Source: a virus (taxonomy: Duplodnaviria; Heunggongvirae; Uroviricota; Caudoviricetes). Taken from it: a DNA stretch of 48,484 bases. Below are positions 2,561-47,476 of this stretch, piece by piece (position 1 is the first letter of the stretch; every line of letters starts with the position of its first letter). The notes below the pieces were generated by a model. The model was not told the DNA's origin, made no database searches, and saw only the letters and a program-made list of their open reading frames with translations. The stretch lies in IMG/VR virus record IMGVR_UViG_2737471860_000008, positions 1 to 48,484 of that record. One strand, 5' to 3'. A program made the position numbers and the translations under genes.

Positions 2561-2840
2561 GACCTTCCTCCTTTGGCTTGTGAATTTGTATCGTCATGCC
2601 GCTTTGAGTGGTGACTACAATGACAGAACCAGGCTGAAGGCTGTTAAGATTGAATGCTTCGTAAAACGAATCCAATGCCAGTGCTTTTTTATTCTTTCTG
2701 TTCCACCAACGCCACCCCTTGCTACAGGCTACACTGACAATCCACTGCCCACTCCTGTAAGCCATATAAAACCAGATGAGCAAAACCTGAAGGAATGCTA
2801 TCCAGTCAATAATCGTATATTTCGCGAAGGAGTCCATCAC
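2553..2840 (-). CDS. Small predicted membrane protein, 95 aa
   Basis: N-terminal hydrophobic stretch (IIDWIAFLQVLLIWFYMAY) then basic WRWWNRKNKK; overlaps neighbours by a few bases (operon-like). Confidence 0.5.
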   Translation of the reverse strand: MMDSFAKYTIIDWIAFLQVLLIWFYMAYRSGQWIVSVACSKGWRWWNRKNKKALALDSFYEAFNLNSLQPGSVIVVTTQSGMTIQIHKPKEEGRG

Positions 2841-3616
2841 TTCACCTCCTGCTGCGGTGCTGCTGGCATTTCACGCCAGTGCGTAACTGAGTGCGGATCC
2901 GGATATTCAGTGCCATCATCCCAGCGATTGCCATTCCACATTGCAGACCACATCTCACCGTCTTCATACATGACCATTACCGGAATTAACTTATCCGGCA
3001 TCCGCTCACTACAGCTTATCCAACCATCCGGAGTTACCGGAGAGTTGCCATTTACATCGAAGTTTGGCTCTGCGTCCTGAACCAGGAGGATGTAACCATT
3101 CTTGGCAGTATCAAGTTCTAACGCCTCGGTGACGGTACCGAAATAGCGATTACCTAAATCCGCATCACAAGTGCTTACATCAATGGAAACCTCCATGCCT
3201 TCGATTAATTCTGGCAAGTTGTAAGTTTGGCTTACAGGTTCGGCACCATGAAGCATGGCAGCACGGCAGGCGTTCCAGCCAGCTGTTCGCCCAAGCGAGT
3301 AAACTTCAGATGGCTCAAGATAATCAATGTCATGCCCGTCCTCATCGTCGTTCTCAGGTAATGCAGCAGGTACTACTGGTACTGGCGGAGCGGCGTAGAC
3401 TTCAATAATCCCATTATCAATAGGCCATTCTCCATCCTTGAGGTAGTCACTTGTGCCGTCAACTTGCTGTTCAGCAATGTGGAATGCACCAACTGGCTCT
3501 GCCTCAAGCGAGGCCAGTGCAATCCGTGCCAGTTCCATTTGTTCGCCACGGGTAAGTCCGTTATCAAGCGGATTTTTAATGAATAATTCGATACGTTCTT
3601 TGGTTATAGCGCTCAT
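2837..3616 (-). CDS. Phage protein with C-terminal DUF551-like domain, ~259 aa (start moved to MSAITKERIE)
   Basis: AGGAG SD before ATG at 3616; C-terminal W-rich motif (MWSAMWNGNRWDD...VTHWREMP) typical of DUF551. Confidence 0.55.
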   Translation of the reverse strand: MSAITKERIELFIKNPLDNGLTRGEQMELARIALASLEAEPVGAFHIAEQQVDGTSDYLKDGEWPIDNGIIEVYAAPPVPVVPAALPENDDEDGHDIDYLEPSEVYSLGRTAGWNACRAAMLHGAEPVSQTYNLPELIEGMEVSIDVSTCDADLGNRYFGTVTEALELDTAKNGYILLVQDAEPNFDVNGNSPVTPDGWISCSERMPDKLIPVMVMYEDGEMWSAMWNGNRWDDGTEYPDPHSVTHWREMPAAPQQEVK

Positions 3617-3617
3617 A

Positions 3618-4568
3618 TCACTCTCCTTTGATGCGAATGCCAGCAAGCCAGTTTCTTATGCCGATATATTCAGCGTTCCTGAAACCGCTTTTTACATATA
3701 TAAATGGCAAGCGAAGATTGTGACCATTGGCTGCCAGGTAGTCTTTACAACCCTGTTCGGTGAAACAGCAGGTAACGAATTCATCAATATCTTTCACAGC
3801 AACGCGCCGCCATTTTTCTGGTGGCTCTCGAAAGTTTTCGTGAAGTAGTTCGAGACGACGACTTTGGCGTTTATTGGCTTCATTGCCATCTTCATCAACC
3901 CAGACAATCCGGTCATAGTCATAATCAGCATCAACAACGATTTCGCGCTTTTGATACACACAAAACATGGGATCTGACGTTATTCGATTGTCCTGTGTCC
4001 GAATATTTTCACCGATGATGCCAAACGAATCTGGTGCAGATTTTGTCTGCATCTCTCCGATACGTTCAGCCATCGCAGCACACTCTTCAAAGTTGCTTAA
4101 TGCTTTTCGCTCCCATTCAGCGCATTGTTTTTCCAGTTCTGCAATGCGCTTACCTCCATCCGCGATTACTCCATCGTAATACTCACGCTGCTCGTTGAGT
4201 TTTGATTTTGCTGCTTCAAGCTCAACACGCAGCTTCCCTACCGTTAGCGCAATTTCCTCGTTCTCCTGGTCGCGGGATTTGATGTATTGCTGGTTTCTTT
4301 CCCGTTCATCCAGTAGTGCCAGCACGGTAGCCGGACTGGCTGCGGCGATGAATTCAGCATTGGCCTGCTGTTCCATTTGGAAATCTTCATCGAAACCGCT
4401 TTCTGGATGAGCTCCTTCAATTCTGCAAATGGGGATATATCCAGCAGCCTCGCGATGAATTAGCGCATCATCACCATCAAATCGGCCCTCTCCATATTCG
4501 AGCGACCACACACCACACGTTGCTTTTTCTGCCTTAGCACGCAGTGCCTGATAATCAATCTGGCTCAC
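3618..4568 (-). CDS. Ea22/Ead-like early protein, 316 aa
   Basis: N-terminus [19 protein letters not shown] resembles the Ead/Ea22-like domain of lambdoid early-left operons; central coiled-coil. Confidence 0.55.
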   Translation of the reverse strand: MSQIDYQALRAKAEKATCGVWSLEYGEGRFDGDDALIHREAAGYIPICRIEGAHPESGFDEDFQMEQQANAEFIAAASPATVLALLDERERNQQYIKSRDQENEEIALTVGKLRVELEAAKSKLNEQREYYDGVIADGGKRIAELEKQCAEWERKALSNFEECAAMAERIGEMQTKSAPDSFGIIGENIRTQDNRITSDPMFCVYQKREIVVDADYDYDRIVWVDEDGNEANKRQSRRLELLHENFREPPEKWRRVAVKDIDEFVTCCFTEQGCKDYLAANGHNLRLPFIYVKSGFRNAEYIGIRNWLAGIRIKGE

Positions 4569-5853: not shown

Positions 5854-6360
5854 TTAAATTGCGTGAATAGCGTGACGAGGGAAGGGGAGAGTTACTGGTG
5901 CAAAGGGTATATCGTCGTCAAAATCCATCGGAGGTTCGTTGTGTTGTGCTGGTGATGATTGCTGCTGTGGCTTCTGCGATTGCCTGCTGGCTGCTTGTTG
6001 TTTGCTGTCGCCAATTCCGCCAAGCATTTGCATCACGCCATTAATTCCGACATGAACCTCGGTTGTGTAACGGTCTTGCCCTGACTGGTCTTTCCACTTT
6101 CTGGTTCTCAGCATTCCCTCGAAATAAATCTGATCACCTTTTTTCACATACTGCCCCACGACCTCAGCCAGTTTCCCGGATACAGCAACACGATGCCATT
6201 CAGTCAATTCCTTTTGCTCGCCAGTATTTTTATCTCGCCATTGTTCTGACGTGGCTATTGTCAGGTTAGCGAACGCTGTACCTGATGGTGAGTATCGAAC
6301 TTCCGGGTCTTGTCCTACCCGACCAAGGATAATCACCTTATTTACGCCTCTGCTTGCCAT
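5854..6360 (-). CDS. ssb: Single-stranded DNA-binding protein, 168 aa
   Basis: OB-fold N-terminus ([18 protein letters not shown]), Gln/Pro-rich linker, acidic tail DFDDDIPF. Confidence 0.9.
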
Positions 6361-7068
6361 TTATGCCGCCTGTTTTAGTTCGTTAACTCTGATGTTCATT
6401 ACCTGAACGCATTTAGCCTGCGCCTCCTCATTGCCAGCCATTAATTGCCAGTCACGCTGATAACGCTCGATGAGTTTTTTCTTGTCAGTTTCTGTTGACA
6501 CATAATCGCTGAAGTCTTTCAGGATTTGTTCGCAGTCAACCGATGGAGATTTCTGGTTGGTATTTTCTGGTGATGGTTTGTTATCTGATGCTGGTATTGC
6601 CCATCCCGGCAGCGATGGAGGGAGCCAGTAAAATCCTGTTCCATCCTTGAGTTTTGCCCTGTGCCATCCCTGCTTTTTATCGAGAGATGTTTGTGCGAAA
6701 CCTTCCTCAAGGTTATACAGATACCTACCGATTCCCCACTGAACGGCAGCGCGCTTCATTGCACCGGAACGACCACCTTTGACGGCTTCTACCTGCGTGT
6801 TTTCAGCAGCATCCCATTTGGTTACCCATTCGGAATCAATCTTGATTGATATGCCGCATTCAACTCCGCCGTTGTTGGGAATATCGCGGTATTCATTGCG
6901 CCATCCTGCTTTGCCGCAAACATCGTCCAGGCGTTTCATGATTGCCCGGTTCGTGACATAAGCCAGCACCATAGCCCACACCTTGCCATCGCGTGTTTTA
7001 CCGCTTTGCTGTATTCGCCATTCGATATCTTCAGGGCTGAATGGCTCATCGAATTTGTTCAAATCCAT
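6361..7068 (-). CDS. Rad52/Sak-like single-strand annealing protein, 235 aa
   Basis: Recombination-module position next to SSB and exonuclease; N-terminal region resembles Rad52-family phage SSAPs (by eye). Confidence 0.55.
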   Translation of the reverse strand: MDLNKFDEPFSPEDIEWRIQQSGKTRDGKVWAMVLAYVTNRAIMKRLDDVCGKAGWRNEYRDIPNNGGVECGISIKIDSEWVTKWDAAENTQVEAVKGGRSGAMKRAAVQWGIGRYLYNLEEGFAQTSLDKKQGWHRAKLKDGTGFYWLPPSLPGWAIPASDNKPSPENTNQKSPSVDCEQILKDFSDYVSTETDKKKLIERYQRDWQLMAGNEEAQAKCVQVMNIRVNELKQAA

Positions 7069-9876: not shown

Positions 9877-10527
9877 TTATGGAAGGTTTGCTAGTTTTGC
9901 ATCGACAACTACGCCGATGATTTTGCAGTTTCCGTTGATCTCGATCATCGGATATTGTGGGTTAAGTGGTTTTAGAAACTTCCTGCCTGCATCAATAACT
10001 AACTTCTTGAAAGTTGCCTCGTTTTCTCCTTCGAGCTTTGCAACTACCAGTTTCCCGTTACGCGGCTCTACTTCAGGATCGACGAGTATTATCATTCCTT
10101 CAGGGATACTGAGACCGGCCGGAGCCGTCATTGAGTCTCCCTTCACGTCCAACCAAAACGAATCTTCTGAACAGTCTACGGTTGTATCGTACCAGTTATC
10201 TATTGCACGCTTATGATATGGTTCTACAGCTTCCATCCAGCATCCTGCGCTCACCCAGCTAATCAGAGGGTATGACCCTCTTGGATCATGCCTACTGTGA
10301 TAGGCAATGTTTGAAAGACTTTCCTCTCCTTTCATCAGATAGTCAGGGGAACACTTCAACGCATTAGCCAGGGCGAGAAGATTCTCTCCATTTGGCTCTG
10401 TCTCAGAGCGTTCCCACTGAGATATGGCAACATTAGACACGCCGACCATCTTTCCAAGTGCGGCCTGCCTGATCTTGAGTTCTTTTCTCCGAGCGCGAAT
10501 GCGCTCTCCCATCAATTGAGTTTTCAT
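9877..10527 (-). CDS. cI: CI repressor (P22 C2/434-type, HTH plus S24 LexA-like autopeptidase), 216 aa
   Basis: N-terminal HTH (QAALGKMVGVSNVAISQWERSE), C-terminal S24 domain with GDSM serine and conserved Lys; divergent from cro. Confidence 0.9.
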   Translation of the reverse strand: MKTQLMGERIRARRKELKIRQAALGKMVGVSNVAISQWERSETEPNGENLLALANALKCSPDYLMKGEESLSNIAYHSRHDPRGSYPLISWVSAGCWMEAVEPYHKRAIDNWYDTTVDCSEDSFWLDVKGDSMTAPAGLSIPEGMIILVDPEVEPRNGKLVVAKLEGENEATFKKLVIDAGRKFLKPLNPQYPMIEINGNCKIIGVVVDAKLANLP

Positions 10528-18879: not shown

Positions 18880-18954
18880 GGGTCAGTCGTATAAAGGTCA
18901 TTACGGAAGGCTGTTAACCTTCTTATCGTGGTTCGAGTCCACGCTGTCCCGCCA
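18880..18954 (+). tRNA. tRNA-like gene, anticodon GUU (Asn), with imperfect acceptor and D stems
   Basis: Hand-folded cloverleaf: anticodon loop CTGTTAA, T arm CGTGG-TTCGAGT-CCACG, encoded CCA; one mismatch each in acceptor and D stems. Confidence 0.45.
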
Positions 18955-18959
18955 AACAT

Positions 18960-19035
18960 GCTGTTTTAGCTCCAATGGTAGAGCGGTCGCCTTGTAAGCG
19001 AATGGGTAGCGGTTCAAGTCCGTTAAACAGCACCA
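18960..19035 (+). tRNA. tRNA-Thr (anticodon UGU), 76 nt with encoded CCA
   Basis: Hand-folded: 7-bp acceptor stem GCTGTTT/AAACAGC, D stem GCTC/GAGC, anticodon loop CTTGTAA, T loop TTCAAGT. Confidence 0.7.
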
Positions 19036-41079: not shown

Positions 41080-41130
41080 CTCAAAGCCCACGCCAGTGGG
41101 ATTTCATAAATAACACATTGATAACATCAA

Positions 41131-41153
41131 ACCCGCTTCGGCGGGTTTTTTTA
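41131..41153 (+). terminator. Rho-independent terminator after the moron
   Basis: Hairpin CCCGC-TTCG-GCGGG followed by TTTTTTT. Confidence 0.75.
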
Positions 41154-41174
41154 TGCCTATATCCCGGAGGAGAC

Positions 41175-44087
41175 ATGGCACTAACCCTTTTGGCTACAAA
41201 CAACGCAGAAAGCACGCTGGCTTCTGCTATCAGCGCTACCGACACGTCGCTGATCGTTAGCGCTGGAACTGGTGCCGAGTTCCCTGATGCTGTGGCAGGC
41301 GAAAGCTACTTTAAGCTTACGATCACCGATGCCGCCACCGGCTCTCAGGTTGAGATCGTGAACGTGACAGCCAAGGCTGGTGACATCTTCACGATTGAAC
41401 GTGCGCAGGAAGGAACGCTGGCTCATGCGTGGGCGGCCAACGATATGGTTGCCAACATGATGACGGCGGATACGCTGAACATTATCGCTCAATATGCCCA
41501 GCAGGCAGCTGCATCAGCAGCACAGGCTGAAGAGTATGCAAATAACGCTTCTGACTATGCACAGAATAAGTTCACGTTCTATAAAACCTCAAGCGATCCA
41601 GATGGCACCATTGCAGGTCTGGCAGCGACTACTGACGGCCAGTCTTTCTGGGTAGCCCAGGGTCCGGATGCGCTTTCTGCTGCATGGCAGTATCAAAACA
41701 AAGCAGGCGTGGCCGTATTGCAGGCAAAGCAACCAGGCACAGCGGCTATAACAGGGACAATCCGCGAATTTCCGACGTTGGCTGCGGCGCAGGCTGATGC
41801 AGATGCCGGCAACATTCCTGTCGGGTCAACTGCGTATTACCGCAGCGCTGACGACGCAACTCTTGCGATTGAGGTTGTTAACACCGCAGGAACGCTGCAG
41901 CCTACCGGACGAAAAATGCCATCCGCAATGCCAATGGGTTACCAGTCTGCTACAGCTGTGAGTAGCGGTGCGGCTAATACCATTGCTATCACTATCCCCG
42001 GATTATTAGTGGATGGCAGTTTGATTTATTTCCTGTCTCCTATTTTGAATACGGCGGCTGTTAGCGTTACCGTGACAGATGCCAGGGGGAACTCGGTTAC
42101 TCGGGCAATACAGAAACAAAATAATGCAGCTTTAGTTGGGAATGAGTTGCTTCTCAATCAGCCCGCACTGATGGAATTCCGCACTGGGACTGCTAACAAT
42201 TTTGTCCTTGTGGCATCCGGCCCGGTAGCCGCTGAACTTGCGTCAAGAATTTCCACGCTTGAATTAAATAGCGTAGCGTTATTGTCTGGCGTTGCTAATT
42301 CTGGAGATGCCTATTCCGGCACCGCATCTACAATCCCTGGACTTGTTGCATCTGATCGCGTCTTTCTTTTTACGCCAAGCGCCACCAATACAACCCGTAC
42401 ACCAACTCTTTCCGTTAATGGTGGAACGGCAAGGCAGATTAAGCAAAATAACGGGACCAGCGTCGCTGCTGGAGATTTTGTAGCGGGATACACGTATTTA
42501 ATCAAATTTAATTTTTCATCAGCAGATTTTCGGATGCTGACCTACCCGGCTGACAGAAGTCGCGTACTTAATGGTTATTCAAAGGCAACTGTTACCAGCG
42601 ATGCTACCAGTCCTAACTCGGTAGCATTAACAATTCCCGGGTTACTTGGCGATGGAACTCAGCTTACTTTTGAGCCGGTTGTTGCAAATACCGGTGCTAT
42701 GACTTTGGTCATCACCGATATGTACGGTAACACAGTCACGCGTAACTTATTCAAAGGGGCTAATACTGCGCTAACTGGTGGAGAGCTGCGGGCGGCAATG
42801 CCAGCCACTGTGCAATACCGTGGCTCTCCGCAGAATAACTTTAAGCTGTTGTATGCCGGTGATCCAACCACGGATATACAGTCCCTCTCAAAAGACGTTA
42901 CGACCCTCAAGGGGGCGCTGACAGACCCGTATGCAGCACTGGCCGATAAACTTGTGGGCACCGGAGTGTCAACAGATCAGTCACCGTTCGGTACCATCAC
43001 CTGGTCCGCGGGAGTTAAGACCGTCACAAAGCGCCAGATAATTTGTACGTCTATCGGGTCTTCTGTGGGCGTTGGGGCGGGCTCTACTGGCGGCGGCGTT
43101 GCCGGTGCTCCTTATGCTCCGAACACGCTGTTTGTCAATGCCTTAAAAGAAGAGCTTAAGCAGTATGGTCAGTTCGATATTATTGATGATAACCAGTGCA
43201 TACCGACCCAGGCATTCCAGCAGTTCGCTGCCCAGCTCGCGAATTCGCCTTATTCAACCTCCGACTTTGTTTTGATCGTGGGGGGGATGAATGATGCACC
43301 AGTTGGTAACTACAATATGGGGCGCACATATCCGGGTCAGCAAACGACGCTTGAGGCTCTTGTCGACCTGTGCCTGGCACGTGGCGCTATTCCCATCATC
43401 TGTACGACTCCGCACCATAACGTAGAAATGCCTCAAACTTACCCGACAATACCAGGAGGGCAGCCTTTATTGTGGCCTTATCGCACATATAACGTAGGAC
43501 CGACAACAACTTATGCATTTGACTCTTCTTCAAAGACGATAACGCAAGGGGCGTTCGCAAACCCACTGTATGGGGGTAATATTCTCAAGCCAGGACACAC
43601 ACTGCATGTAGCAAGTGGCGCGAATGCTGGAGATTATACAATTGCGTCTATTTCATCTGACCGAACAGTAATAACAGTTGTAGAACCGATACCATCTACT
43701 ACTTCCTATGCCACCACCATCACGCAAACCAACCTGAACAGCATTATTGAGGACATACTGGAGCCGCCCCCATCCACATCTTTTGTCACAAAGGACTGGA
43801 GCGGAAGCGGCGTGAAAGTTTTGGGCGATGTGAGATTCGAGTCAGTAAACATGATGCAACGTACAGTGGCTCGCCAAAAAAATGCATTTTTGGCCGACTG
43901 TGAAAAGTCGTTCTTTAAATACGGCGTGGAGGTGGGCGGGTACTCGTCGGTATATAACGTCCCGGTTGGGAACTATAACCACATGAACGATAACGGGTAC
44001 ACAGTCACATTCGACTACACACTGAAAGTTGCGGCAAGAAAAATAGCCAATCTTATTTTTGGCGATAAATATTACTCTGCAGCATAA
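41175..44087 (+). CDS. Tail fibre/tailspike, ~970 aa, with SGNH/GDSL-like esterase domain (start moved to MALTLLATNN)
   Basis: GGAGGAG SD before ATG 41175; conserved fibre N-terminal domain; central region with GSS...GGMNDA...PHH blocks resembling SGNH hydrolases. Confidence 0.7.
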   Translation: MALTLLATNNAESTLASAISATDTSLIVSAGTGAEFPDAVAGESYFKLTITDAATGSQVEIVNVTAKAGDIFTIERAQEGTLAHAWAANDMVANMMTADTLNIIAQYAQQAAASAAQAEEYANNASDYAQNKFTFYKTSSDPDGTIAGLAATTDGQSFWVAQGPDALSAAWQYQNKAGVAVLQAKQPGTAAITGTIREFPTLAAAQADADAGNIPVGSTAYYRSADDATLAIEVVNTAGTLQPTGRKMPSAMPMGYQSATAVSSGAANTIAITIPGLLVDGSLIYFLSPILNTAAVSVTVTDARGNSVTRAIQKQNNAALVGNELLLNQPALMEFRTGTANNFVLVASGPVAAELASRISTLELNSVALLSGVANSGDAYSGTASTIPGLVASDRVFLFTPSATNTTRTPTLSVNGGTARQIKQNNGTSVAAGDFVAGYTYLIKFNFSSADFRMLTYPADRSRVLNGYSKATVTSDATSPNSVALTIPGLLGDGTQLTFEPVVANTGAMTLVITDMYGNTVTRNLFKGANTALTGGELRAAMPATVQYRGSPQNNFKLLYAGDPTTDIQSLSKDVTTLKGALTDPYAALADKLVGTGVSTDQSPFGTITWSAGVKTVTKRQIICTSIGSSVGVGAGSTGGGVAGAPYAPNTLFVNALKEELKQYGQFDIIDDNQCIPTQAFQQFAAQLANSPYSTSDFVLIVGGMNDAPVGNYNMGRTYPGQQTTLEALVDLCLARGAIPIICTTPHHNVEMPQTYPTIPGGQPLLWPYRTYNVGPTTTYAFDSSSKTITQGAFANPLYGGNILKPGHTLHVASGANAGDYTIASISSDRTVITVVEPIPSTTSYATTITQTNLNSIIEDILEPPPSTSFVTKDWSGSGVKVLGDVRFESVNMMQRTVARQKNAFLADCEKSFFKYGVEVGGYSSVYNVPVGNYNHMNDNGYTVTFDYTLKVAARKIANLIFGDKYYSAA

Positions 44088-44414: not shown

Positions 44415-44457
44415 TTGACCTTCCCTCTCAATAAAACTACTGTATATAAAAACAGTG
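44415..44457 (+). promoter_or_regulatory. SOS-type promoter: -35 TTGACC, 17-bp spacer, -10 TACTGT overlapping a LexA box TACTGTATATAAAAACAGTG
   Basis: CTGT-N8-ACAG palindrome at 44440-44455 fits the LexA box consensus TACTG(TA)5CAGTA. Confidence 0.65.
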
Positions 44458-44475
44458 TTTATCGGAGGGCAGATC

Positions 44476-44715
44476 ATGCTTCGACAGTCAGACATCGCCG
44501 CGGCTTTCCGCGAGTCGGTTTTGCGCAGCTCTAAGGGGTTCCAGTACCTTCACACCCGCGACTTTGTTAGCGCGCTGCGCCAGCATGGCATCCACTTTTC
44601 CGAGGTGGAAGCTAACGCCTGGATAGCGCGCGAGCAAACGTATTTCGTCGATAAGACGCCTGACCATAGCGAAAACAGGCTGTGGATGATGGCCAACATG
44701 GGGAGGGTTTTGTAA
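44476..44715 (+). CDS. Hypothetical small protein, first gene of LexA-box operon, ~80 aa
   Basis: GGAGGG SD 6 nt before ATG 44476; stop overlaps next start (TAATG). Confidence 0.55.
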   Translation: MLRQSDIAAAFRESVLRSSKGFQYLHTRDFVSALRQHGIHFSEVEANAWIAREQTYFVDKTPDHSENRLWMMANMGRVL

Positions 44716-45032
44716 TGGGCTTTCCATCACCGGCAACGGACTATACCGAACAGCGGCTGACCGTTAACTCGATCTGTAATGTCGGGCCAAATACTCGCCT
44801 TTACGAAAGGGATGGTGGTTATGTTGTGCTGGATATCTCCCTGAAGCCAAAGCAGGGAAGCCAGCTGCTTATCCATCACGGTGGCGGGACGGAACTTGCC
44901 ACGCTGAGAGGAAAGTCACTGATAACCGATGATGGCGAAGCGATCGAGGGGGATGCTCTGGACGATGTCACTGTCATTGGTGTCGTGACATTTACTATCT
45001 GCGATGTTCGTTCTGATAATTCTATTATTTAA
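44715..45032 (+). CDS. UmuD-prime-like protein (S24-like fold, catalytic Ser apparently absent), ~105 aa
   Basis: Starts MGFPSPATDYTEQR, matching the post-cleavage N-terminus of UmuD (GFPSPAADYVEQR); C-terminal VIGVV block conserved; no GDSM serine motif. Confidence 0.6.
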   Translation: MGFPSPATDYTEQRLTVNSICNVGPNTRLYERDGGYVVLDISLKPKQGSQLLIHHGGGTELATLRGKSLITDDGEAIEGDALDDVTVIGVVTFTICDVRSDNSII

Positions 45033-45043
45033 CTGGGGTATAT

Positions 45044-46075
45044 ATGGCGCTGAAGCTATTAGCCAATAATAACGCAAAGAGTGTGCTCGCTGCGGGTATT
45101 AGCGCGTCCGCTACCGTTATTACCGTGGGTACTGGAGCGGGGTCTTTATTCCCTTCCCCTGTATCTGGGCAGAGCTATTTCAAATTAACGATAACCGACG
45201 CGGCCACGAAAACAATTTCCGAAATTATGCACGTCACGTCTGTATCTGGTGACGTGATGACAGTAATTCGTGGTCAGGAAGGAACTACGGCACGCGTATG
45301 GTCAACGAATGACATTGTCGCGAATTTAATGACCGCCGGGTCATTATTATCTTTCCTGCAGATCAGTAATAACCTGTCAGAAATTAAAGATGCTGGTGAT
45401 GATGCGGTAAATGAAGCCCGTTATAACCTCGGAATATCTGATTCCTCTGGTTTTGTCGGTCGTTCACTTGGCGCTCCAAAAGTTTTCTATGCAAACGGAA
45501 CCTATACGCGATCTCCTCTGGCCCGTTATGCAAAAGTAACGTTGACAGGTGCCGGTGGCGGCGGTGGCGGCTGCCAGGCCTACAACAATACAGAAACCTT
45601 CTCCGGTGCTGGCGGCGGCGCGGGCGCGACCATTATCGTATGGGTTGACCTGTCTGCTGCCAGTTCTTATGCGATTACTGTCGGCAAGGGTGGTAAGGGC
45701 GGAGTTGGCGCAGTAAGTGGTGCAGATGGTGGGGCCACCTCGTTTGCCAGCCTGTTCTCAGCTCCTGGCGGGAAAGGCGGCGTGAAGTCAGGCGTGTCCA
45801 ATACCGCCGGCGGCGCCGGAGGTACGGCGGCGACCGGAGATATCAGGATCAACGGTGGTACCGGCTCAGATGGACAGACAGGCTCAAGCCTTCTGACGGG
45901 CAACGGCGGGGCGTCGTATTTTGGCGGCGGTGGCCGGGCGGGTTCTCAGGCCGGTATTGCTGGCGCAGCTCCCGGATCCGGTGGTGGTGGCGCGTATGAC
46001 CTTGGGTTTACCGGTGCGGCATTTACCGGTGGTGATGGTGCTACTGGCATGGCGATCGTGGAAGAATTCGCGTAA
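45044..46075 (+). CDS. Second tail-fibre protein with Gly-rich C-terminal domain, 343 aa
   Basis: N-terminal ~105 aa paralogous to the N-terminus of the 41175 fibre (…YFKLTITDAAT…QEGT…); C-terminal GGGGxG-rich repeats. Confidence 0.65.
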   Translation: MALKLLANNNAKSVLAAGISASATVITVGTGAGSLFPSPVSGQSYFKLTITDAATKTISEIMHVTSVSGDVMTVIRGQEGTTARVWSTNDIVANLMTAGSLLSFLQISNNLSEIKDAGDDAVNEARYNLGISDSSGFVGRSLGAPKVFYANGTYTRSPLARYAKVTLTGAGGGGGGCQAYNNTETFSGAGGGAGATIIVWVDLSAASSYAITVGKGGKGGVGAVSGADGGATSFASLFSAPGGKGGVKSGVSNTAGGAGGTAATGDIRINGGTGSDGQTGSSLLTGNGGASYFGGGGRAGSQAGIAGAAPGSGGGGAYDLGFTGAAFTGGDGATGMAIVEEFA

Positions 46076-47401: not shown

Positions 47402-47416
47402 TGGTGTCCCCTGCAG
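47402..47416. repeat. attL core (copy of the 15-bp att repeat, part of argW 3' end)
   Basis: Exact match to 1690-1704. Confidence 0.8.
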
Positions 47417-47476
47417 GAATCGAACCTGCAATTAGCCCTTAGGAGGGGCTCGTTATATCCATTTAACTAAGAGGAC
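47402..47476 (-). tRNA. argW: tRNA-Arg (anticodon CCU), 75 nt
   Basis: Minus-strand sequence GTCCTCTTAGTTAAATGGATATAACGAGCCCCTCCTAAGGGCTAATTGCAGGTTCGATTCCTGCAGGGGACACCA folds as cloverleaf with anticodon CCT. Confidence 0.9.

Follow-up and report, generated by a model that had tools for sequence, protein, structure and literature searches.

The closest described systems are humD of phage P1 and gene 26 of phage N15. In the GenBank record of P1, humD is annotated with a LexA site 19 nucleotides (nt) ahead of it, and its product is said to be one that 'functionally complements E. coli UmuD′'; the reference for HumD, McLenigan et al. 1999, is cited in PMC8460599. Gene 26 of N15, annotated as UmuD-like, follows directly on a tail-fibre gene, and its ATG is preceded by a LexA box at a distance of 14 nt. 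Here we describe a cassette of two genes, A and B, in a 48,484-nt stretch of DNA (positions 1 to 48,484 of IMG/VR virus record IMGVR_UViG_2737471860_000008; hereafter the window). The window is an E. coli chromosomal segment with a lambdoid-type prophage carrying contractile-tail genes, and the cassette is located at the far right end of the prophage, between fibre-type genes. A predicted LexA operator precedes two translationally coupled genes, the second of which encodes a UmuD′-type protein that has lost the Ser-Lys dyad. From its sequence, this short form is best seen as a relative of HumD that has undergone further reduction.

Gene B matches PHROG 3469 ('UmuD-like protein') with an E-value of 7.4e-46, residues 1–103 aligning with positions 1–103 of the 106 in the profile. 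It finds no Pfam family even at E ≤ 1, the gathering score of Peptidase_S24 not being reached, and its PDB sequence matches are UmuD and UmuD′ alone, via the arm motif GFPSPAxDYxEQR. A profile of 21 diverse gene B relatives was aligned by hhalign to residues 25–137 of UmuD with a probability of 98.4% (E-value 8.5e-15). The alignment contains one large gap of 11 residues, which is exactly Gly58–Asp68, the Ser60 loop, and the same deletion is present in every aligned member of the short family. UmuD Lys97 falls on Ala62 of gene B in the hhalign alignment, or on Thr/Leu in a joint alignment, and the family has no conserved lysine column. The AlphaFold model of gene B (predicted local distance difference test score, pLDDT, of 82, with the last residues predicted to be disordered) has UmuD′ as its top PDB folds (1i4v, 1ay9 and 1umu), followed by the C-terminal domains of LexA and lambda CI, with a template modelling score of about 0.6. 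Given the profile, the model and the loss of the Ser60 loop and of Lys97, gene B does encode a UmuD′-type protein with the S24 fold, and this protein cannot act as a peptidase. An earlier interpretation made from the letters of the window (the sequence-only reading) had called this protein S24/UmuD-like and devoid of the Ser-Lys dyad; both calls are borne out by profile and structure.

The open reading frame (ORF) of gene B opens with M-G, without a cleavable Ala/Cys-Gly site and without the N-terminal segment that would precede it. Its N-terminus, MGFPSPATDYTEQR, aligned with UmuD Cys24 and the following GFPSPAADYVEQR, starts at the equivalent of UmuD Gly25, without a propeptide; alignment and PDB match thus agree with the proposal that the protein opens as RecA-processed UmuD does. 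An initiator methionine before glycine is normally removed, and as residue 2 of gene B is a glycine, loss of the methionine is expected, leaving the same N-terminus as that of processed UmuD′. The arm residues Gly2, Phe3, Ser5, Pro6, Asp9 and Glu12 are at least 90% conserved in the family, and because the family is never cleaved, the arm must have a function beyond that of a cleavage site. Also conserved are the dimer-forming elements, namely the helix RLTVNSI and the GVV strand, and an acidic loop, ITxDGExIEGEALDDV, which is specific to the short family. The protein is acidic, like UmuD′, with an isoelectric point (pI) of 4.5.

The C-terminus of gene B is encoded at 45015-45032. In the joint alignment, the short family shares with HumD and gp26 a C-terminal tail, DDxP(V/I)(I/L/M). 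Such a tail (EFDDCPVI in HumD) is present in 27 of 36 short-family representatives; its proline is lost in the Klebsiella-type clade to which the window belongs (SDNSII, SDSLAV). Most short-family proteins, P1 HumD and N15 gp26 end in an acidic residue followed by two residues, proline, (V/T/I/A) and a carboxy-terminal (I/V/M/L/F), for instance DDDIPIM, DDSPF and DDCPVI. This acidic-proline-hydrophobic ending recalls the C-terminal tip of the single-stranded DNA-binding protein (SSB), DDDIPF. One family member of 141 amino acids (aa), P0167, has a UmuD-like propeptide with a Cys-Gly site (...ELREIIALTLFSDSMQCGFTSPAADY) joined to the short-form, serine-less body; recombination with host umuD may have produced it, or it may represent an intermediate stage of evolution.

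The predicted operator (Table 1) is the single match to the LexA consensus at three or fewer mismatches in the 48-kb window, while none of 100 shuffles gave any. It is identical at 19 of 20 positions to the E. coli K-12 umuDC operator, TACTGTATATAAAAACAGTA. The K-12 umuDC promoter (TTGATC-17 nt-TACTGT) has the same layout as that of the cassette, where the spacer between TTGACC and TACTGT is also 17 nt, and a similar leader (GGCAGAT..ATG) after the operator. The consensus of the family is TTGATC-N17-TACTGTATATATATACAGTA, in which the operator is a perfect palindrome. A generic sigma-70 scan did not call the cassette promoter, because TACTGT fits TATAAT at just three of six positions; the promoter assignment is therefore founded on the identity of its layout with that of umuDC and on its conservation. 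The site has the characteristics of the SOS regulon, a CTGT-N8-ACAG motif with an AT-rich spacer, lying over the core promoter and kept in orthologous loci. It is a near-consensus, umuDC-type predicted LexA site, through which LexA would control the cassette in vivo, and the sequence-only reading, which had placed such a box over the −10 of a promoter with −35 TTGACC, was right in this. Tight operators of this kind are derepressed late, at about the level of damage that also induces lambdoid prophages. There are four CTGT-N8-ACAG matches in the window, compared with 0.59 expected; the other three, at 3753, 23113 and 27260, are probably not LexA sites, since their spacers are GC-rich and none fits the 20-nt consensus at three or fewer mismatches.

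The stop codon of gene A and the start codon of gene B share one base (TAATG), so the two genes are translationally coupled, with the sizes and positions that had been read from the sequence.

Table 1. Positions of the cassette and of other features in the window.
Feature	Position	Strand	Remarks
−35 hexamer TTGACC	44415..44420	+	Read directly; TTGA at 17-nt distance from TACTGT kept across the family
Predicted LexA box TACTGTATATAAAAACAGTG	44438..44457	+	First six bases, TACTGT (44438-44443), serve as −10
Shine-Dalgarno GGAGGG	44464-44469	+	Before gene A
Gene A	44476..44715	+	ATG 44476, TAA 44715; 79 aa; PHROG 3893, unknown function
Gene B	44715..45032	+	ATG 44715, TAA 45032; 105 aa; UmuD′/HumD-like, PHROG 3469
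Tail fibre gene	41118-44087		989 aa; followed by a 95-aa ORF, then the cassette
Glycine-rich fibre-like gene	45044..46075	+	11 nt 3′ of gene B; integrase next; context only
CI repressor	9877-10527	−	P22 C2-like; VSAG, GDSM and FKKL motifs

A search with the gene B family profile, one genome being taken per species, returned 80 loci with 33–63% identity (81 with the window), from Raoultella, Klebsiella, Enterobacter, Citrobacter, Kosakonia, Leclercia, Pantoea, Erwinia, Tatumella and other Enterobacterales. In 68 of the 81 loci, a perfect CTGT-N8-ACAG is located in the 120 nt that precede the first gene of the cassette. Most of the remaining 13 have a box further upstream (gene A having gone undetected), a box with one mismatch or paired dinI-type boxes; among those left, one locus is cut by the end of a contig and two are without any box. 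The A-B architecture occurs in at least 58 of the 81 loci, always with a gap of −1 to +4 nt, and about 20 loci have gene B alone with the box some 15–25 nt before its ATG, which is the HumD arrangement. A sole locus (L042, Enterobacteriaceae bacterium LSJC7, 6001-6553) has gene B before gene A, with a LexA box 17 nt ahead of gene B. In loci with identifiable flanks, the cassette comes after tail-fibre or fibre-assembly genes, at the end of a prophage and beside attP/int or host DNA. A DinI-like gene adjoins the cassette in 12 of the 80 loci (L008, L011, L012, L018, L021, L024, L050, L052 and others) and in phage mEp390; several of these neighbours are divergent and share paired, slightly degenerate LexA boxes with the cassette, forming a small SOS island at prophage ends.

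When phage genomes were searched by tblastn, the family was found in 112 records, the short form in many Klebsiella phages, mEp390, phiES15 and others, and the longer form in P1 (humD), P7, N15 (gene 26), HK140 and HK639. Nearly all matches on plasmids are full-length umuD or of HumD type, with only 8 of 4207 records reaching 60% identity to the short form, which is thus all but missing from plasmids. The cassette is matched in 132 of 5426 complete E. coli genomes, and some clusters comprise thousands of member sequences.

The loss of the catalytic residues and of umuC could suggest a decaying, functionless remnant of umuDC. The ratio of non-synonymous to synonymous substitution rates (dN/dS) between four cassettes is 0.12–0.19 for gene A and 0.08–0.14 for gene B, so that both are under purifying selection. 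The short-family ORF is stable in length (104–110 aa), there are about 200 clusters at 50% identity, with invariant motifs retained down to 28% identity, and the operator, the −35 hexamer and the coupling are conserved. From these selection and conservation data, the idea of a remnant is effectively refuted; low dN/dS, stable length and conserved loci indicate that genes A and B are both real and constrained.

Gene A matches phrog_3893 with an E-value of 3e-39, and no Pfam (also for 30 homologues), NCBIfam, PADLOC, or PDB sequence or profile match was found for it. Its AlphaFold2 model (pLDDT 89) has the order helix-strand-helix-helix-strand-strand, a winged-helix arrangement, and Foldseek searches of the PDB and BFVD returned weak winged-helix-type matches (E ≥ 0.2) and one true homologue. 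Homologues of gene A often carry the NCBI name 'DNA polymerase V', which we do not take as evidence, as no domain or family match supports it. A homologue in mEp390 (L087, JQ182729; about 2760-2998, plus strand; ...ADANAWIKRYQPDFADKTTDGSDNRYWILRNMGRVF), just upstream of mEp390_026, is unannotated in GenBank; the record has a 129-nt minus-strand ORF there instead, and a DinI-like gene is divergent upstream. In some Raoultella and Klebsiella genomes (P0362, P0279), gene B is replaced by pieces of a serine DNA invertase, either a resolvase catalytic piece or HTH_7, into which gene A continues; this suggests rearrangements with a tail-fibre invertase gene.

LexA, CI and UmuDAb each pair a DNA-binding domain with an S24 domain. 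By analogy, the cassette could encode a split LexA-like regulator, protein A being the winged-helix DNA-binding subunit and protein B the S24-type dimerization subunit, and the complex, made late in the SOS response, would repress or activate phage or host promoters. The confidently modelled topology of gene A, the winged-helix DNA-binding proteins that make up most of its weak fold matches, and the tight coupling of the two genes, kept in at least 58 loci and, in reversed order, in one more, are all in keeping with such a regulator. The fold matches, however, do not reach significance, and the gene A family shows no sequence or profile similarity to LexA, hhalign included, or to any Pfam helix-turn-helix family. 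The family has a near-neutral median pI of 6.8, unlike small DNA-binding proteins, which argues mildly against a DNA-binding role. The roughly 20 loci with B alone, together with P1 and N15, manage without gene A. An apparent natural A-B fusion, P0176, was considered and discarded, as the 3′ half of its gene A part reads as out of frame, in a frameshift-like manner; it was the only such fusion. We regard a split regulator as improbable. Protein A probably acts on protein B, either as a binding partner or as a modulator.

Our favoured explanation, plausible but still tentative on the analyses presented here, is that the cassette provides a damage-induced, cleavage-independent surrogate of UmuD′ acting on host UmuC and RecA. 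The cassette would be a LexA-repressed accessory operon ('moron') at the tail-fibre and attachment-site end of the prophage, whose ancestor was presumably a umuD-type gene that brought its own promoter and operator along. In a lysogen, LexA bound to the near-consensus umuDC-type operator over the −10 would keep the operon off; strong or prolonged DNA damage would remove LexA, and proteins A and B would be co-produced by translational coupling. Once its methionine is removed, protein B would begin at the exact residue left by RecA-stimulated cleavage of UmuD, and it keeps the UmuD′ arm, the S24 beta-barrel and the dimer-forming C-terminal strand, a dispensable catalytic loop having gone. A dimer of B could then replace UmuD′ on the host SOS machinery (UmuC, with RecA), and the induced prophage would gain lesion bypass, or control over it, at once and without the slow RecA-dependent cleavage of UmuD.

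An action on host UmuC and RecA like that reported for HumD is the most economical reading, because the arm, the barrel, the dimer strand and the acidity are kept and the cassette itself encodes no polymerase. In none of the 80 loci is there a umuC homologue within 6 kb, so the partner of B would have to come from the host; E. coli carries umuDC. Several observations weigh against this explanation. The match of gene B to the NCBIfam HumD model (NF051876), aligning residues 1–101 with positions 1–121 of 129, has an E-value of 5.8e-11 and scores 42.5 bits, below the cutoff of 120. UmuD contacts the RecA filament through Tyr52, residue 54, Asp91, Glu93 and Phe94 (PMC9926225). In protein B these sites are Arg28, Tyr30, Gly56, Gly58 and Thr59, unlike in HumD, which holds E, E, Y and K there; since the contact residues differ, the function of the short form may no longer be that of HumD. 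Neither umuDC nor humD has a counterpart of A, a partner that looks obligatory, and no solved structure defines the UmuC-binding surface of UmuD′, the PDB entries found being UmuD′ alone and UmuD on RecA.

The same differences lend weight to a different role, in which protein B, as a decoy with an S24 fold but no catalytic activity, would modulate the SOS response instead of building active DNA polymerase V (Pol V), assisted or regulated by A. By forming heterodimers with host UmuD or UmuD′, or by titrating UmuC, it could suppress mutagenesis; by occupying the filament of activated RecA (RecA*), it could alter the timing of LexA, UmuD or CI cleavage during induction. Conservation of the arm and of the dimer-forming helix and strand fits this role, as does the family-specific acidic loop, and a deleted catalytic loop and lost lysine are expected of a non-enzymatic binder. 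The changes from HumD at the RecA-contact positions suggest a changed function, and the adjoining DinI-like genes point the same way, DinI being a known RecA-filament binder (PMC9926225). The residues by which UmuD docks in the RecA groove are, however, not kept in B, and HumD, which among relatives of annotated function is the closest, reportedly promotes mutagenesis and does not block it. With RecA-docking residues lost, and an invariant acidic loop and a dedicated partner gained, a decoy or modulator is a serious rival, albeit a rather doubtful one. Somewhat less doubtful, though still only a possibility, is that B and the winged-helix-like A form a distinct two-protein SOS module without active Pol V, which would reprogramme mutagenesis or the timing of LexA and CI cleavage as the prophage is induced. 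Such a module may dock via the arm, the acidic loop and the C-terminal tail on UmuC, UmuD, RecA* or SSB clients.

The CI repressor of the prophage closely resembles the C2 sequence of phage P22; this P22 C2-like repressor occurs here although the virion genes are of the contractile-tail type. With its Ala-Gly site, GDSM and FKKL intact, CI looks self-cleavable and thus directly inducible by RecA*. Two Klebsiella phages, RothC and ST13-OXA48phi12.5, encode A and B proteins that are 86–90% identical to those of the window, while the CIs of these two phages and of the window are 19–22% identical among themselves, all with GDSM, and the virion modules differ. The cassette thus does not co-vary with immunity.

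These observations bear on a proposal of the sequence-only reading, that B might be an antirepressor of the phage's own CI. In its general form, B (or A) would be a LexA-controlled antirepressor that inactivates this CI or other S24 repressors by heterodimerization, as Tum, GfoA and AntC inactivate theirs. The antirepressors 186 Tum, Gifsy GfoA/GfhA and N15 AntC are small phage proteins under direct LexA control, encoded away from the immunity region (PMC3121763). The cassette resembles the genes of the Gifsy antirepressors (PMC3121763) in its predicted LexA control and in its distance from the immunity region, and gene B has an S24 fold like that of the CI C-terminal domain. A cognate antirepressor would, however, be expected to track immunity, which the cassette does not, and the anatomy of the resident CI leads one to expect direct induction by RecA*. 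In addition, B matches the fold of UmuD′ better than it does that of CI C-terminal domains, and the sole similarity to an anti-repressor family, found for gene A, has an E-value of 0.29. The antirepressor proposal is accordingly disfavoured, and we consider it very unlikely.

The prophage is inserted at tRNA-Arg(CCT)/yfdC and has an IntS-type integrase; the right flank, over intS-argW-yfdC, is 99.9% identical to E. coli. The 3′ end of the tRNA-Arg (TGGTGTCCCCTGCAG followed by GGAATCGAACCTGCAA; window positions 47402-47431) is duplicated at the left end of the prophage, where the copy consists of two exact pieces, 1690-1704 and 1998-2013, 293 bp apart, with a small minus-strand ORF in the DNA between them. 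Two successive insertions, or an att site of composite structure, may account for this split copy. Genes for tRNA-Asn(GTT) and tRNA-Thr(TGT) are located inside the prophage at 18880-19035, upstream of the lysis genes.

The gene downstream of the cassette matches Pfam Gly_rich_2 (E-value 1.6e-13) and tail-fibre PHROGs. As no terminator-like site was found between 45032 and 45044, its co-transcription with the cassette, which the sequence-only reading had considered, is possible; similarly, no terminator was seen upstream, so read-through from the tail operon into the cassette is also possible. The same glycine-rich neighbour is present in RothC and in E. coli fM51a, but is absent downstream in other loci (mEp390 and the E. 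coli loci L088-L091), and by this comparison the gene is no conserved part of the cassette. The two fibre genes have in common an N-terminal domain, about 100 aa in length (MAL.LLA.NNA...YFKLTITDAAT), and differ in their C-terminal parts: for the larger gene, an E. coli homologue carries the annotation SGNH/GDSL hydrolase, and the smaller gene has the glycine-rich domain. Two fibre genes with one N-terminal domain, flanking an SOS cassette, suggest alternative receptor-binding proteins on one adaptor.

The cassette is very common in temperate phages of Klebsiella, E. coli, Enterobacter, Pantoea and Erwinia. If it does supply or block UmuD′ function, prophages would set the speed and strength of host error-prone repair after exposure to DNA-damaging antibiotics, with a bearing on mutation supply, resistance evolution and the repair of phage genomes after induction. 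As a natural experiment, the short form also shows which parts of UmuD′ are needed once self-cleavage has become dispensable, and gene A encodes a widespread protein without an assigned function.

Like P1 HumD and N15 gp26, gene B encodes a phage orphan UmuD′ homologue with a start of the M-GFPSPAxDYVE type and no propeptide. The cassette is likewise preceded by a LexA box (14–19 nt before the ATG for HumD and gp26) and has no adjacent umuC, and most of the short family shares with these two proteins the tail DDCPV(I/L), which UmuD lacks. HumD and gp26 are longer, 128–129 aa compared with 105 aa, and about 30% identical to gene B. They keep the segment of the Ser loop (ADSH in HumD, GATH in gp26) and the lysine (IKRY), while in gene B that loop and a second segment are deleted; they also keep the RecA-contact positions and have no gene A.

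With E. coli UmuD and umuDC, the cassette has in common the operator (19/20), the promoter layout, the arm from Gly25, the S24 fold, the acidity and the C-terminal GVV strand. It differs in being borne by a prophage, in its extra upstream gene A, and in having no 24-residue propeptide, no Ser60, no Lys97 and no downstream umuC. The impCAB operons of plasmids reportedly place a small DinI-like protein, ImpC, before UmuD and UmuC homologues under LexA control. The likeness is that of a small gene ahead of a UmuD homologue in one LexA-controlled operon; unlike ImpC, gene A has no DinI Pfam match, nor have 30 of its homologues, and its predicted topology is different, and there is no ImpB/UmuC gene here. 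For these operons, the title of Lodwick et al. 1990 is cited in PMC11541004.

As for the Tum, GfoA and AntC antirepressors, the repressors of the phages that encode them are non-cleavable, whereas the CI here looks cleavable, and there is no sequence relationship. A paper on Gifsy-1 STM14_3218-3220, followed as a literature lead, proved to be unrelated. In Acinetobacter, UmuDAb and a partner of about 80 aa, DdrR, take part in the damage response (PMC4807011). The combination of a UmuD-family protein with a small partner of about 80 aa resembles the cassette; in contrast to gene B, UmuDAb is a repressor that cleaves itself, its dyad being intact, and that binds DNA through its N-terminus. We know of no homology between gene A and DdrR.

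LexA-controlled phage UmuD′ homologues are already known as a kind, with P1 HumD and N15 gp26 as examples, and the short form already has its label in PHROG 3469; to that extent the statement of the sequence-only reading, that this is not a described system, does not stand. It does stand for what is new here, the dyad-less short subfamily together with its partner gene A, an uncharacterised protein with a winged-helix-like predicted topology.

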